NCBI GenBank assembly: GCA_963722305.1
Contig: CAVRKE010000002.1
Coordinates: forward strand, 379,878-443,877
DNA length: 64,000 nucleotides
Origin: Candidatus Levyibacteriota bacterium
GTDB lineage: Bacteria > Patescibacteriota > Microgenomatia > Levybacterales > UBA12049
Direction: 5' to 3'
Shown here piece by piece: positions 57,575 to 64,000 of this stretch. Under the pieces are notes generated by a model, which worked only from the letters and a program-made list of their open reading frames with translations, was not told the DNA's origin and did not search any database. A program made the translations under genes and the position numbers. Numbering within the stretch: the first letter of the stretch is position 1; every line of letters starts with the position of its first letter.

Positions 57575-57646
57575 TCCGCAGTAGCTCAATGGTAGAGCGG
57601 TTCCCTGTTAAGGAAAAGGTTCTAGGTCCGAGTCCTAGCTGCGGAG
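57575..57646 (+). tRNA. tRNA-Asn (anticodon GTT at 57607-57609), 72 nt, no encoded CCA
   Basis: Manual fold: 7-bp acceptor tccgcag/ctgcgga, D-arm gctc/gagc, anticodon loop cTGTTaa, T-arm ctagg/cctag with loop tccgagt. Oddities are a G27.A43 mismatch and C at position 55. Confidence 0.6.
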
Positions 57647-57715
57647 CTCGGTATTTTTATCCCCGGAAATATTGATACATTGACAAGCACTACAAGTAGT
57701 TGTACTATATGAAGT

Positions 57716-57990: not shown

Positions 57991-58392
57991 GTGAAAAATA
58001 TGACAGAATTAGTAAAAGAAACAGTAACCACACAGGAAAATAGTCCGGTTGCTACTTCTAAGAAAAGCGACCAAGCAACAAGCTATCAAACGATTGAATA
58101 TCTAATCTATTTCTTCTTTGGTGCTTTGGAAATACTCTTGATTTTTAGGTTGATACTTAGATTAACTGGAGCTAATAGCTTTAGTGCCTTTGTGGGCCTA
58201 ATTTATGGCATAACAGGGGTTTTTATAGTCCCCTTTCAAGGAATATTTCACCAGGCTACTGCAGCAGGCGTAGAAACAACAGCAGTTTTAGAACCAGCAA
58301 CGATAGTTGCAATTGTTGTATATGCAGTTTTGGCAGTAGGAATTGTAAAGTTACTACGAATACTTTCGGGTAAAAAACAACAAGCTGAGTAA
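57991..58392 (+). CDS. YggT-like small integral membrane protein
   Basis: 133 aa. Strong SD aaggaggtga upstream. LLIFRLILRL...FSAFVGLIYGITGVFIVPFQGIF resembles the YGGT signature. Confidence 0.4.
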   Translation: MKNMTELVKETVTTQENSPVATSKKSDQATSYQTIEYLIYFFFGALEILLIFRLILRLTGANSFSAFVGLIYGITGVFIVPFQGIFHQATAAGVETTAVLEPATIVAIVVYAVLAVGIVKLLRILSGKKQQAE

Positions 58393-58436
58393 CTTGTTGT
58401 TTTTGGAATTGGGTAGTAGAAAGGATGTGAAAAAAT

Positions 58437-58676
58437 ATGAGTATTATATATTGGTTAATTTTTGGATTAATTACTGGAACTGTAGCAAATTTTATTTCTC
58501 CCGGATTTAGAGGTGGAATAATAGGGTCAATAATTTTAGGCGTAATCGGAGCAGTAGTTGGAGGCTATTTGGGAGAAATGTTTTTCAATGTTGGAGTTAC
58601 TGGATTTAATTTAGTCTCTTTTGCTGTAGCAATAGCGGGATCATTAATTGTTCTTTTTGTCAGCAGATTGATATAA
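58437..58676 (+). CDS. GlsB/YeaQ/YmgE family stress-response membrane protein (transglycosylase-associated protein family)
   Basis: 79 aa. WLIFGLITGTVANFISPG...GSIILGVIGAVVGGYLG...GFNLVSFAVAIAGSLIVLFV is near-collinear with E. coli YeaQ/YmgE. Confidence 0.85.
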   Translation: MSIIYWLIFGLITGTVANFISPGFRGGIIGSIILGVIGAVVGGYLGEMFFNVGVTGFNLVSFAVAIAGSLIVLFVSRLI

Positions 58677-58722
58677 ATTCCAGTTTCGCAAAATTCAAAT
58701 AAATAGAGGCAGGTGACATATT

Positions 58723-58896
58723 ATGGATGATTCGCAACAAAAAGCACAGATAGACGAAGAGGCAAGAAAAGCCAAGGAAGGAATAGATACAGCTGCCTTT
58801 AACGCGAGGCAACTTCTGGCAGATCAAGTAAGTGAAAAAATAAGAAGTGATGCGGAAGCGGAAATAGCGCAGATTCAAAATGATGCGCAGAAATAG
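58723..58896 (+). CDS. Small 57-aa charged, probably coiled-coil protein (absent from the ORF track because it is under 60 aa)
   Basis: ATG at 58723 is preceded by gaggcaggtga. MDDSQQKAQIDEEARKAKEGIDTAAFNARQLLADQVSEKIRSDAEAEIAQIQNDAQK. Stop TAG at 58894. Confidence 0.35.
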   Translation: MDDSQQKAQIDEEARKAKEGIDTAAFNARQLLADQVSEKIRSDAEAEIAQIQNDAQK

Positions 58897-59099
58897 GTTT
58901 GTATCATTCCCCTAGAGAAAGGTATACTGAAAACGGAGAGCCAGCGAAAATAGGTTTCGGGATAGTATTTTTACTATGCCCACTGTTAGAGCAACTGGTC
59001 TTCCCGGTAAGTAGAAAGCGATCTATTCCTGGTTGTGCTTGAAGGCACACATAACCAACAAGCATATCGTAGTACTTCCTAAGGCAAGACTTTTAAGCT

Positions 59100-59153
59100 C
59101 TCCTTTTCTTTCTTCTCTTTCTCTTCTTTCTTTAAGGCTTAAAAGAAAAGGAG
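59100..59153 (+). promoter_or_regulatory. Stem-loop sequestering the transposase Shine-Dalgarno (12-bp stem: ctccttttcttt / aaagaaaaggag)
   Basis: The 3' arm overlaps the RBS aaggagg at 59148-59154. This is a classic IS translational-control hairpin. Confidence 0.55.
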
Positions 59154-59162
59154 GTGATGAAA

Positions 59163-60101
59163 ATGATAGTTGTAGGCGTAGATGTCTCAAAAGACACCCT
59201 TGTTGCTGTGGCAATTGATAAATCAATACGAATAAAGCATTCATTTACCGTTAAGAATAACAAGGAAAGTATCGATAAGTGGTTAAATGCTCTTCCGTAC
59301 AAAAAGATGCTGCTCTCTTGTGAGGCAACTGCCGAATACCACAGGGTACTTGCACTTTTGGCTCTTTCTTCTAAAATACCATTGAGGTTATTAAATCCCA
59401 TTGTGACTAAGCAATATACCAAAGCAACTGTTCGAAAGAGAAAAACTGACCCTCAAGACGCATTAACCATTGCTAAGCTGGCTCTTGCCGGAGAAGGAAG
59501 GCTGATAAGTACCCAAACTTTTCACATTGCCAAAACCCATGAGAGAACCGCCATAAAGCTAACACACATGAAACAGCGTCTTTTACTAATACAACAGCAC
59601 GTACAAGAGGTAGATCCGGATGATACAGCTTCTTTTGAGGAGTTGCAGGTCTGTATTGATACCATAGAACAGTCAATCAAAGCATTTAGGAAGAAAGCAG
59701 AAGAAGAGGTTGATTCAAAACTTGTTAAACTGCTTTGCTCTATACCGGGAGTGGGAGAAACAATAGCAACGGTACTTCTTGCGGAAATCGGAGATATTAA
59801 TCAGTTCAAATCAGATAAAGCCCTCGTTGCTTATGCGGGATTGGATCCAAAGGTCAAACAATCAGGAGGAAGATTACACCATAATACCCATTTAACTAAA
59901 AGAGGCTCTCCTTACCTTAGACAGATGCTCTATACAGGAGCTTCTATTGCACAACGGCATGATAAGAAACTTAAGGCGTATTACGAGAAGAAGAGAGCTG
60001 AGGGAAAGAGGTACAAAGAAGCAACCATTGCGGTATCAAGAAAACTGCTCAATAGAGTATATGCAGTTTTAAAAAGGCAGACACCTTATATACCTGGATG
60101 A
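59163..60101 (+). CDS. IS110-family transposase (DEDD N-terminal domain plus IS116/IS110/IS902 C-terminal domain)
   Basis: MIVVGVDVSKDTLVAV (IS110 N-terminal) and IPGVGETIATVLLAEIGDINQFKSDKALVAYAGLDPKVKQSGG (C-terminal transposase_20). RBS 8 nt upstream. The ORF-track start at 59154 is a GTG inside the RBS. Confidence 0.9.
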   Translation: MIVVGVDVSKDTLVAVAIDKSIRIKHSFTVKNNKESIDKWLNALPYKKMLLSCEATAEYHRVLALLALSSKIPLRLLNPIVTKQYTKATVRKRKTDPQDALTIAKLALAGEGRLISTQTFHIAKTHERTAIKLTHMKQRLLLIQQHVQEVDPDDTASFEELQVCIDTIEQSIKAFRKKAEEEVDSKLVKLLCSIPGVGETIATVLLAEIGDINQFKSDKALVAYAGLDPKVKQSGGRLHHNTHLTKRGSPYLRQMLYTGASIAQRHDKKLKAYYEKKRAEGKRYKEATIAVSRKLLNRVYAVLKRQTPYIPG

Positions 60102-60222
60102 GATACATCGGTAACACTTTGAGACCAGGGGTCTTGACAAAAGATTCCTGGTCTCTAACACCATCTCCATGAACACACTGTTCAGGATTTCGCTACGGCT
60201 CATATTCCTCGGAGCTGAAAAA

Positions 60223-60492
60223 CTATTTATTAAATAGTTTTCTCAGCTCTACTTTTGCTTGTTCAAGGATCATCTTTCTTTCGGGCCGCAGGTTCTTTCC
60301 TGCCCTATTTATATAGAAATTTAGCATGCTCATAGCGGATTGAAATGGGATAGTTTTACGTCTTGTACTATTTTCTGCTGATTTTTTTAAACTTTCGGCA
60401 ATTTTTTCTGGGCTTTTCCAGGTAAAAACGCCTTCTTCCAAATCCAAAGCAATGCTGTGTTTAGTGACTTTACCCGACCAATTTCTATTCAT
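60223..60492 (-). CDS. DUF3175 domain protein
   Basis: 89 aa. ALDLEEGVFTWKSPEKIAESLKKSAENSTRRKTIPFQSAMSMLNFYINRAGKNL...LEQAKVELRKLF matches the DUF3175 conserved core. Confidence 0.65.
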   Translation of the reverse strand: MNRNWSGKVTKHSIALDLEEGVFTWKSPEKIAESLKKSAENSTRRKTIPFQSAMSMLNFYINRAGKNLRPERKMILEQAKVELRKLFNK

Positions 60493-60519
60493 ATAACATA
60501 ATTTTACTGCTCTAAAATC

Positions 60520-61032
60520 TTATTTAGCACAAGTGGGCCAGGCATTTTGCTCTCCGCGCGAAATTTTAAAAGCTGCTGTTTTTATTGACTCCTCGGCACT
60601 TACGCGAAGAGCCAGGTTTGTATCCTCTCCCATTAACGCACGGCTATTAATCCAGGCGCCTGATGAAAATTGGAAAAGACCGACGTAATCTCCATAGGTA
60701 GCGGGCGGGTTGAAACCGGATTCACAGGCGGCAATTTTTCTTAGTAAGTTTTTATCTACGCTATAAAGATTTGCGTATTTTGTAAATAAATCCTCAAGTG
60801 TTGTTGAGGTTAGCGGAATTGGAGTTGGAGTCGGAGTTAATGTTGGAGTTGGTGTGGGCAAAGGAGTTGGAGTTGGTGTTAGTGTGGGTGTCGGCGTTAA
60901 AGTTGGGAAAGCAACCCCCATGATGGGCATGGAAGATGTAATTTCAGGTTTCTTCTGGGAATCTAAAAATAAAGATGCCGAAAGGGTGCCTAAAATTATC
61001 AGTATAATTACAAAAACCACCCAAATTTTCAT
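60520..61032 (-). CDS. Secreted lytic-transglycosylase-like protein (SLT/Rpf-type catalytic motif) with a signal peptide and a Pro/Thr linker
   Basis: 170 aa. N-terminal hydrophobic signal. TPTPTLTPTPTPLPTPTPTLTPTPTPIP linker. C-terminal AACESGFNPPATYGDYVGLFQFSSGAW resembles the E-S...GL(M/F)Q motif of transglycosylase domains. Confidence 0.55.
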   Translation of the reverse strand: MKIWVVFVIILIILGTLSASLFLDSQKKPEITSSMPIMGVAFPTLTPTPTLTPTPTPLPTPTPTLTPTPTPIPLTSTTLEDLFTKYANLYSVDKNLLRKIAACESGFNPPATYGDYVGLFQFSSGAWINSRALMGEDTNLALRVSAEESIKTAAFKISRGEQNAWPTCAK

Positions 61033-61201: not shown

Positions 61202-61399
61202 ATGACACTTATAACAAAATTTATCGTTTTTGTGGTAATTATTATATCCGTTAATAATTTCGTGTTGTATTATGCTATCCGGAACAATGGGATACATTCA
61301 ACAATACACTCGCTTGGCCTGCTGGTATTTTTAATTAGTCTTATTGAAATAGTGGCAATTGGAATTTATATTTATATCCACTTAAGAAATGGGTTCTAA
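61202..61399 (+). CDS. Small hypothetical 2-TM membrane protein
   Basis: 65-aa hydrophobic ORF. No family recognised. Low support. Confidence 0.25.
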   Translation: MTLITKFIVFVVIIISVNNFVLYYAIRNNGIHSTIHSLGLLVFLISLIEIVAIGIYIYIHLRNGF

Positions 61400-61496
61400 G
61401 GTTGTCCCCCATCAGAGGAAGTAAATGCAAAAGATGAGATACATCGGTAACACTTTTAAGATAGAATAGCTATCCCAAAAGGAGGTGAATAAACCG

Positions 61497-62195
61497 ATGT
61501 ATACAAAACAAATCCATGGATACAGGATTTTGGAGAAACCATTTCCCAGCATTGATAAATGGCAACTGTTTAGGTCATTGGGAAAAGGCAATCTATCCCT
61601 TACCGCCCAGCTAAAACTGGAGTGGATAATCTTCTACCAAACAATTGGAAAAGGTAATGCTCGTCTAACCGCCAAGCACTTTGGCATTAATCCTAAAACA
61701 TTGCATAAGTGGAAGAAGAGGTTTAACGAGAAAGATTTATCGACACTTGAGGAGCAATCAAGAGCGCCTGTTAGAACACGCCAAAGGGAAATCAGCGTCT
61801 TGCAGAAAGAGCGCATCAGAAGTCTTCGTAGGGAGCATCTTAGGTGGGGCAAGATGAAGCTTAGAAAGCGGTACCAAGAGATTTATGGTGAAGATATCTC
61901 CTCCTGGAAGTTTCAGGTAGTAATTGAAGATGAGCACCTCTACTATGATCGAAGAAAGACACTAAAGCAGAGGAAAAGACGAAAACAGCTTCAAGAACAC
62001 CCCAAGAAGCGTATTAATACCCTTTTAAAGGAAAGCAAAGTAAATTTTCTCTGGCATGTGGATACTGTGCTTCTGACCCAATCAACCGGAGGTTATCGAT
62101 ACCTGCTGACAGCAATTGATGATCAGTCAAAACTAGCCTACGCCAGATTGTATACGACTCATTCTTCAAAGCAATACATAAAATATAGATTCTAA
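61497..62195 (+). pseudogene. IS481-like (rve-type DDE) transposase/integrase. The N-terminal HTH region and the start of the catalytic core are present; the gene is truncated at a stop.
   Basis: HTH LTAKHFGINPKTLHKWKKRF. LEEQSRAPVRTRQ resembles the IS481 DRSRRPH region. The core begins WHVDTVLLTQSTGGYRYLLTAIDDQSKLAYARLY then stops. Expected length is about 330-400 aa but only about 233 aa are present. Strong SD aaaggaggtga upstream. Confidence 0.55.
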
Positions 62196-62386
62196 TGTCG
62201 TCTATTTCTATTCAGGTTACAACCGCAGGATTTAATTGTAATCTCTTTATTTCTTCCCATCTTTGTTTCAATTCCCCGATATAGCTTAGATTTTGGAAGG
62301 ATTCTACCACTTTTGCTGGTATAATAATCCAAGGTTCGCGGAGCAATTGGCCCTTAATATAACCTCTTTGATATAATATTTATAGC

Positions 62387-63949: not shown

Positions 63950-64000
63950 CATAACAGGTTCTAGACCTGGAATCTTTTGTCAAGACCCCAGGCCCGAAAC

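Follow-up and report, generated by a model that had tools for sequence, protein, structure and literature searches.

The window analysed here, a stretch of 64 kb, comes from a Candidatus Levyibacteriota genome of 1.29 Mb that is assembled into two contigs (C1 and C2; genome label G000). It contains an IS110-group insertion sequence, designated ISa (58900-60154, plus strand, as are all features below unless stated otherwise), which measures 1,255 bp with one core dinucleotide counted and whose ends were defined from its copies and from a sister element, ISb. The recombinase gene of ISa is preceded by a non-coding leader of 263 nt, extending from the first base of the element (58900) to an ATG at 59163. 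A sequence-only reading had described this leader as a structured region starting at 58897, with a hairpin sequestering the ribosome-binding site and a candidate bridge-RNA locus. These observations were largely borne out: the leader is non-coding and, as judged from five copies, ISb and empty target sites, lies wholly inside the element, the proposed start being 3 nt too far upstream, and the bridge-RNA assignment is supported by guide matches, guide covariation and covariation of the RNA structure. Based on comparative sequence evidence, we consider it very probable that the leader of ISa encodes a bridge RNA of the IS621 type.

The recombinase gene (59163-60101) encodes a protein of 312 aa with a DEDD RuvC-like domain and a Tnp domain (PF01548, E 4e-21; PF02371, E 3e-28), which aligns end to end with the IS621 recombinase (PDB 8WT6; residues 4-309, E 7.6e-22). 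The catalytic-type residues D7, E54, D96, D99 and S234 are invariant or nearly so among 27 relatives. The start is placed at GTG 59154 in an open reading frame listing, whereas ATG 59163 is the probable start codon because the spacing of the Shine-Dalgarno (SD) region AAGGAGGUGA (59148-59157), 5 nt before it, favours this position. Five copies of ISa with 99-100% identity are present in the genome (three intact and two interrupted), along with four copies of ISb, which shares 69% DNA identity and 55% protein identity with ISa. In a sample of 401 genomes of the phylum, recombinase relatives were few and distant and were found in 11 genomes, and a search of genome contigs with the single recombinase yielded one partial locus only. 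In addition, 80 related loci were fetched from metagenomes, and approximately 60 distinct relatives were used for the analysis of covariation.

The ends of ISa were mapped from its five copies, from ISb and from unoccupied target sites. Homology between ISa and ISb begins and stops at the same bases as the ends of ISa, starting with TGTATC (58900) and ending with GATTCC(T/A)GGT-CT (60154). The left and right flanks are AA(T/C)AGG-TT and CTAAC-GTCGTC for ISa, and GACGACG-TT and AGAAC-CTATT for ISb; these flanks are the two strands of one sequence, which therefore predicts an empty site, AATAGGTTCTAACGTCGTC, and this site was found unoccupied several times in the genome (e.g. C2:454793, C2:455268 and C1:76565). 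Both target halves, namely the left one (LT, AAATAGG, 58891-58897), of which AA(T/C)AGG is kept left of all five copies, and the right one (RT, CTAAC, 60155-60159), which is kept right of all copies, have the same bases in empty sites. Comparison of occupied junctions with empty sites revealed that the left junction keeps the target-derived core TT (58898-58899), and that the right junction carries the donor core copy CT (60153-60154) behind the left donor half ATTCCTGGT (60144-60152), the overlap of empty site and junctions being 1 nt. The second core position is T at both junctions, and neither terminal inverted repeats nor a longer target duplication are present, which is characteristic of the IS110 group. 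In IS621, cleavage of the top strand occurs 3′ of the core, whose second base is almost always T while its first base varies, and TT and other xT cores support recombination (PMC11208160, PMC11208158); the TT and CT junctions of ISa fit IS621 for these reasons. The insertion point of ISa is thus AATAGG-TT^CTAAC, and ISb uses the opposite strand, 4 bp off. The target repeat recurs every 1-2 kb in an accessory region beside a tRNA-Asn gene (57575-57647), and the target site resembles the 3′ half of this gene at 13 of 19 positions.

Several segments of the leader correspond to these flanks and ends. According to the strand rules of IS621, the left target guide (LTG) equals the top strand of LT plus core, and the right target guide (RTG) equals the reverse complement of core plus RT (PMC11208160, PMC11208158). 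The candidate LTG of ISa, AAAUAGGUU (DNA AAATAGGTT; 58948-58956), is identical to LT plus core, agreeing with 58891-58899 at nine of nine positions, and does not occur a third time in the 64 kb. At the aligned place, ISb has GACGACGUU (DNA GACGACGTT), which equals its own flank. When LTGs were compared with the 9 nt left of TGTAT in 60 relatives, cognate pairs agreed at a mean of 7.07 of the nine positions and non-cognate pairs at 4.89. The candidate RTG, GUUAGAG (DNA GTTAGAG; 58985-58991), is the reverse complement of CT plus CTAAC and matches the right junction (60153-60159) at all seven positions, and its ISb counterpart, GUUCUAG (DNA GTTCTAG), suits CT plus AGAAC. Fifteen distinct RTG types were found in the relatives, each of which matches its own right flank at four or five of the five non-core positions, always at the same site and in the same context.

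Similar correspondences were observed for the donor. The candidate left donor guide (LDG), AUUCCUGGU followed by U (59025-59034), is identical to the right end, agreeing at nine of nine positions with the last nine nucleotides before the core (60144-60152); within the window, ATTCCTGGT occurs only at 59025-59033 and 60144-60152. The single T-to-A change in the right end of ISb recurs in its LDG, and the LDG variants of relatives (CCTGGT, CCAGGT, CTAGGT and GTAGGT) are each present in their own right end too. Matches between the leader and a palindrome at the 3′ end of the element had been suspected to represent guides, and the attcctggt part of them is this LDG; the ggtcttcc part is a strand of helix c described below, and the ggtcttcc/ggtcttgac match was rejected as a guide since it shows no covariation and its two sides are a stem strand and the -35 region, respectively. 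The candidate right donor guide (RDG; 59051-59062) comprises AU (59051-59052) and ACAAG (59058-59062), which are complementary to CT-TGT..AT of the circle junction; ACAAG is kept in nearly all relatives, and AU would provide the distal pairing. LTG, RTG and LDG covary with their own flanks or ends in ISb and approximately 60 relatives.

The fold of the RNA was analyzed by covariance models seeded with four close relatives, and the resulting models R1 and R2 match 61-62 loci upstream of recombinase genes. Alignments in which the partners were slid by 1-3 columns, and the single-sequence minimum free energy (MFE) compared with 200 shuffles, served as controls. The structured domain delimited by R1/R2 and the MFE fold comprises approximately 169 nt (58935-59103). 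In the alignment, 92.8% of cells are paired vs 35-45% with slid partners, two-sided (compensatory) changes are present in 33 of 38 base pairs, and the covariation score is 0.49 vs 0.04-0.07. Unconstrained folding of the core RNA (58929-59108) produced the same architecture as the covariance model, with a z of -3.37 and none of 200 shuffles as good. MAFFT combined with RNAalifold did not recover the hairpins from 60 leaders because leader length varies, and covariance models were used instead.

The whole RNA is closed by helix a (58935-58940 GGAGAG with 59098-59103 CUCUCC), which is present in the MFE fold and paired in 97% of cases across 61 sequences; compensated changes include GGCGA/UCGCC in L100 and AGAGA/UCUCU in L115. 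An extension of helix a into the downstream pyrimidine tract (GAAAA/UUUUC in ISa, GAAAU/AUUUC in ISb) is not general in other relatives. Helix b (58941-58944 CCAG with 58995-58998 CUGG) closes the target loop, is 98% paired and shows a GC-to-CG swap in four sequences. Inside this loop, the inner hairpin P2 (58959-58981) has two-sided changes at eight of eight pairs, which are 92-100% paired, and a conserved bulged G (58978). Helix c, which extends the donor stem and is also found in the MFE fold, pairs 58997-59004 (GGUCUUCC) with 59083-59091; all five of its modelled pairs are two-sided, 94% pairing is observed, and lineage-specific insertions are mirrored on the partner strand, e.g. GGUAUUUCU/AGAAAUACC. 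Two-sided changes also occur in 11 of the 12 pairs of the basal stem of the donor loop (59006-59013 with 59073-59079, and 59018-59022 with 59066-59070). The local hairpin that the sequence-only reading had placed at 59033-59050 is real and forms the inner hairpin of the donor loop (59034-59038 with 59045-59049), whose three modelled pairs covary in approximately 60 relatives (GC, CG, AU or UA at the third). A first model, in which GGAG (58935-38) and CUCC (59000-03) form an outer stem of the target loop, was abandoned since helices a and c fit the covariation better. This pairing is compatible with most sequences and mutually exclusive with helices a and c, and the RNA may switch between the two conformations.

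A candidate promoter was found in the joined ends of the element. The right end contains a -35 box, TTGACA (60134-60139), which is kept in relatives and often overlaps the stop codon, and the left end contains a -10 box, TATCAT (58902-58907), which overlaps the right donor half TGTATC (58900-58905); TGTAT and TAT..T of the left end are likewise kept in relatives. On the excised circle these boxes would be arranged as TTGACA-17-TATCAT, with 15 nt of the spacer from the right end and 2 nt from the left end, and no plus-strand promoter-like site was detected in the integrated copy. A predicted sigma-70 type promoter is therefore one that forms across the junction between right end (RE) and left end (LE) only on the excised circle. 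In addition, a TAnnnT hexamer, TATACT (58924-58929), lies 6-8 nt upstream of helix a and the RNA domain, and relatives have TATAAT, TAGAAT, TAAAAT, TACAAT or TACACT at the same place; this hexamer may be a weak internal -10 box. In the case of IS621, low-level read-through transcription is enough for excision. On the minus strand, a promoter-like site (TTGAGA-16-TATCAT, 10 of 12 matches; 59190-59163) points antisense into the leader, and transcripts starting from it would be complementary to both the SD and the pyrimidine tract; the number of such promoter-like sites is not above chance.

The -35 box is enclosed by an inverted repeat of the right end, GAGACCAGG-17 nt-CCTGGTCTC (60121-60155). 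Among relatives, the upstream arm of this repeat varies together with the donor half (ACCAGG/CCTGGT vs ACCTGG/CCAGGT). The donor sequence is thus matched three times, by the LDG, the right end and this upstream arm. Many relatives lack the repeat, which could sequester the displaced donor top strand or serve as a 3′ hairpin of the mRNA.

The organization of ISa agrees with that of IS621 in many respects, including a DEDD and Ser recombinase, a guide RNA encoded ahead of the gene in the left end, a target loop followed by a donor loop, each made of a stem, an internal loop and an inner hairpin, the LTG and RTG rules, an LDG equal to the right end, an RDG ending in CAAG, a left end starting with TGTAT, an xT core, and a -35 box in the right end and a -10 box in the left end that are joined on the circle. 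A promoter across the RE-LE junction has been described for IS621 (PMC11208160, PMC11208158), and the IS621 sequence has an RDG of AU-UU-GCAAG against the same donor CTTGTAT as ISa. On the other hand, the ISa protein is only approximately 27% identical to that of IS621 (tblastn), its target and donor cores differ (TT and CT, respectively), its RTG has 7 nt instead of 4 and its LDG matches 9 nt, and the 5′ stem-loop is much reduced. Furthermore, the long-range helix 58935-40 x 59098-103 closes both loops, helix c lengthens the donor stem, and approximately 60 extra nucleotides with a mirror-symmetric tract and a strong SD separate the RNA from the start codon, whereas in IS621 the RNA abuts the ATG and such a tract is absent.

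This tract, a homopyrimidine perfect mirror repeat of 29 nt (59105-59133; TTTCTTTCTTCTC-TTT-CTCTTCTTTCTTT, i.e. TTTCTTTCTTCTCTTTCTCTTCTTTCTTT), recurs unchanged in 26 of 60 distinct leaders and with at most one edit in 41 of the 60, although the corresponding recombinases are only approximately 50% identical. All but two of 44 distinct pyrimidine runs hold a perfect mirror repeat, which ranges from 22 to 42 nt and has approximately 20 different cores, and for most of them shuffles of the same run gave p<=0.0015 for the length of the repeat. Symmetric double changes were observed as well, such as T7C with T23C in ISb and C8T with C22T in L046. In the same phylum, two loci with 31-32% protein identity (L022 and L024) have tracts of unrelated sequence that are equally symmetric, with perfect mirrors of 31 nt and 42 nt; L022, L024 and L032 (31-33% protein identity) all have a long pyrimidine tract ahead of the recombinase gene, and this feature may be widespread in IS110 elements of the phylum. 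When the homopurine/homopyrimidine mirror repeats of the 1.29-Mb genome are ranked by length, the top nine are exactly those of the nine copies of ISa and ISb. In the 401-genome sample, the exact tract was found in this genome only, along with one match with two mismatches, and it was not found in the viral contigs searched. In the library searched, papers on IS110 elements or bridge RNAs never mention polypyrimidine, and none of the top matches listed joins IS110 to triplex, H-DNA or mirror repeats.

A stem of 12 bp (59100-59111 with 59142-59153) covers part of the SD region in the MFE fold, and its pyrimidine strand is part of the 29-nt mirror repeat. The pairing proposed earlier as a sequestering hairpin exists in this sense as a pairing potential, but not as a stem of particular stability: it is no better than dinucleotide shuffles (z -0.47; 57 of 200), because a pyrimidine run pairs with a purine run, and it belongs to the larger mirror tract. 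Helix a needs positions 59100-59103 as well, so that the two pairings compete. Predictions for the relatives mostly have the SD region base-paired to the pyrimidine run (P 0.7-0.99), the partner region differing among lineages.

Mirror symmetry of a homopyrimidine strand is the requirement for H-DNA, and H-DNA stalls RNA polymerases (PMC11667243, PMC4538819). Similar to H-DNA mirror repeats, the tract of ISa has a pure pyrimidine strand, a perfect mirror of 29 nt and no adjacent C in its canonical version; unlike known H-palindromes, it is a conserved and position-fixed part of a transposon leader, its symmetry is kept by compensated changes, and the triplex itself is a prediction. By simple geometry, a transcript can align in parallel with its own duplex, along the purine strand and over the full tract, only if the tract equals its own reverse. 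A sense-strand purine run matching the 13-nt half-site with at most two mismatches was found neither in ISa nor in ISb nor in 18 of 25 relatives scanned, and the remaining seven have only scattered matches with one or two mismatches at non-conserved positions. Since no matching purine run is present in the sense RNA, a DNA-containing triplex appears to be the likeliest structural reason for the mirror symmetry. It is possible, and we put it forward tentatively, that the tract has been selected to form such a triplex, either as H-DNA in the supercoiled circle or through the pyrimidine tail of the RNA on the template duplex, which would stall or end transcription between the guide RNA and the recombinase gene and set the ratio of the two, and which could also tether the guide RNA in cis.

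It is rather unlikely that the tract is a mere anti-SD and/or U-rich terminator tail whose symmetry has no structural meaning. The 5′ flank of the tract or its 3′ half does pair with the purine-rich SD in most relatives, and the tract starts right after helix a, where a U-rich run could aid termination; however, Watson-Crick pairing with the SD selects a direct complement and not mirror symmetry, whereas approximately 20 variants, including those of the distant L022 and L024, are all perfect mirrors over 22-42 nt and symmetric double changes occur. Moreover, relatives in which no SD precedes the aligned start codon, such as L068, L080 and L095, have kept the tract. Improbable, in our view, is an action at the RNA level only, in which the tract would clamp a purine run of the transcript, e.g. 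the SD, in a U-A-U/C-G-C triple helix. The order of pyrimidine half, pyrimidine half and purine run is that of a classic intramolecular triplex, and both halves are compatible with the first 7-8 nt of the SD-proximal run AAAGAAA(A/G), but GGAGG of the SD breaks the Hoogsteen code and the tract is kept where the SD is missing; an all-RNA triplex was rejected given the lack of a cognate purine run noted above.

With respect to the bridge RNA, a number of points weigh against the assignment. In some relatives the natural flank agrees with the LTG at only 4-6 of nine positions, pairing of the RDG would require a bulge of 5 nt compared with 2 nt in IS621, and, with regard to the nucleotides after RTG and RDG, the handshake rule of IS621 fits the donor-loop position only. 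The mismatch between the target core TT and the donor core CT would create one G-T/U-G wobble position, and a scan of 58000-61000 against Rfam 15 at E<=10 gave chance-level matches only (best E 0.23). We infer the 5′ and 3′ ends of the RNA, as we do its transcription, binding and catalysis. That the leader is nothing but a cis-acting 5′ untranslated region, which acts on how the recombinase mRNA is translated or on its stability, by sequestering the ribosome-binding site or by attenuation, while the matches to flanks and ends are chance or protein-bound DNA sites, is most improbable: an SD-pairing stem exists, the SD is predicted to be paired in most relatives, and two pairing schemes that exclude one another are available to the segments 58935-40, 58997-59004, 59083-91 and 59098-103, as in an attenuator, but the stem does not exceed shuffles and, above all, the loop segments change in step with flanks and right end in ISa, ISb and dozens of relatives, following the strand rules of IS621.

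In the proposed bridge-RNA mechanism, excision would set TTGACA of the right end 17 nt from TATCAT of the left end and so create a promoter for an RNA of approximately 169 nt, which would fold into a target-binding and a donor-binding loop. The DEDD/Ser recombinase, bound to this RNA, would join the junction of the circle, ...CCTGGT-CT-TGTATC..., to the repeat AATAGG-TT-CTAACGTCGTC in the genome. Downstream of the RNA, the tract and the SD pairing would most likely limit how much recombinase is made from that transcript. What the mirror symmetry suggests is a triplex that contains DNA, be it H-DNA or a transcript bound back on its own duplex; it may block transcription between the guide RNA and the recombinase gene or tether the RNA in cis.

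Some features of ISa resemble other insertion sequences. IS1111-attC elements and IS4321/IS5075 belong to the IS110 family and target repeated recombination sites of other mobile systems. Like them, ISa inserts at a specific site and in a specific orientation into a short repeat interspersed in a mobile gene array; in contrast, its target is a AATAGGTTCTAACGTCGTC module beside tRNA-Asn that is used by two sister elements on opposite strands, and its guide RNA is in the left end, as in the IS110 group, and not in the right. Leader structures that occlude the ribosome-binding site are found in IS10 and IS50, and in ISa a leader segment can also pair with the SD and would damp translation of read-through transcripts; here, however, the pairing is driven by composition, competes with a guide-RNA helix and uses part of a symmetric tract.

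Additional observations concern the copies of the elements and their surroundings. The two interrupted ISa copies both carry the same 1.2-kb IS3-family element (rve and HTH_21 transposase; C2:458373-459604 and C1:264830-266057, loci L004 and L005-L007) with the ends TATAATGGACCCC...GGGGTCCACCTTA and a 3-bp target duplication; one of these insertions is inside the bridge RNA, where TCC is duplicated at the equivalent of 59002-59004 in helix c, and the second sits in the recombinase gene. At 63953-64000 on the minus strand, a copy of ISb begins and runs past the window edge; it shows the flank AACAGGTTCT, the core AG (63963-64) and then the right end, reverse-complemented and including TTGACA, and its insertion site belongs to the repeat family that ISa uses, but in the opposite orientation. 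Diverged unoccupied copies of the target are present at 61387-61409 (AAATGGGTTCTAAGGTTGTCCCC) and 62183-62205 (ATATAGATTCTAATGTCGTCTAT). Approximately 25 nt past the first of them, 61433-61456 is a 24-nt exact copy of ISa 60097-60120 (the end of the recombinase open reading frame plus the first bases of the right end), which may have been left behind by an ISa copy that was lost or truncated. In addition, a REP-like repeat, CTTCG.CT..GCTCAGGATTTCGCT.CGCTCAA, is present at 60180-60215 and at approximately 20 other places scattered through the genome, and it stands right of the target site at several ISa copies.

The bridge RNA itself is of a known kind, and what is new in the clade of ISa is the closing helix and the mirror-symmetric tract. 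ISa and ISb represent a natural specificity-swap pair, in which two elements of one genome address opposite strands of the same 22-bp site with different guide loops. If the assignment is correct, the bridge-RNA system would extend to very small genomes of the candidate-phyla-radiation type, where its target would be a repeat interspersed among accessory gene cassettes. Should the tract adopt a triplex form, this would amount to a rare bacterial example of a non-B structure under clear purifying and compensatory selection, and the tract could provide a built-in control of the guide-to-enzyme ratio or of cis-action, which is relevant to the engineering of bridge recombinases.

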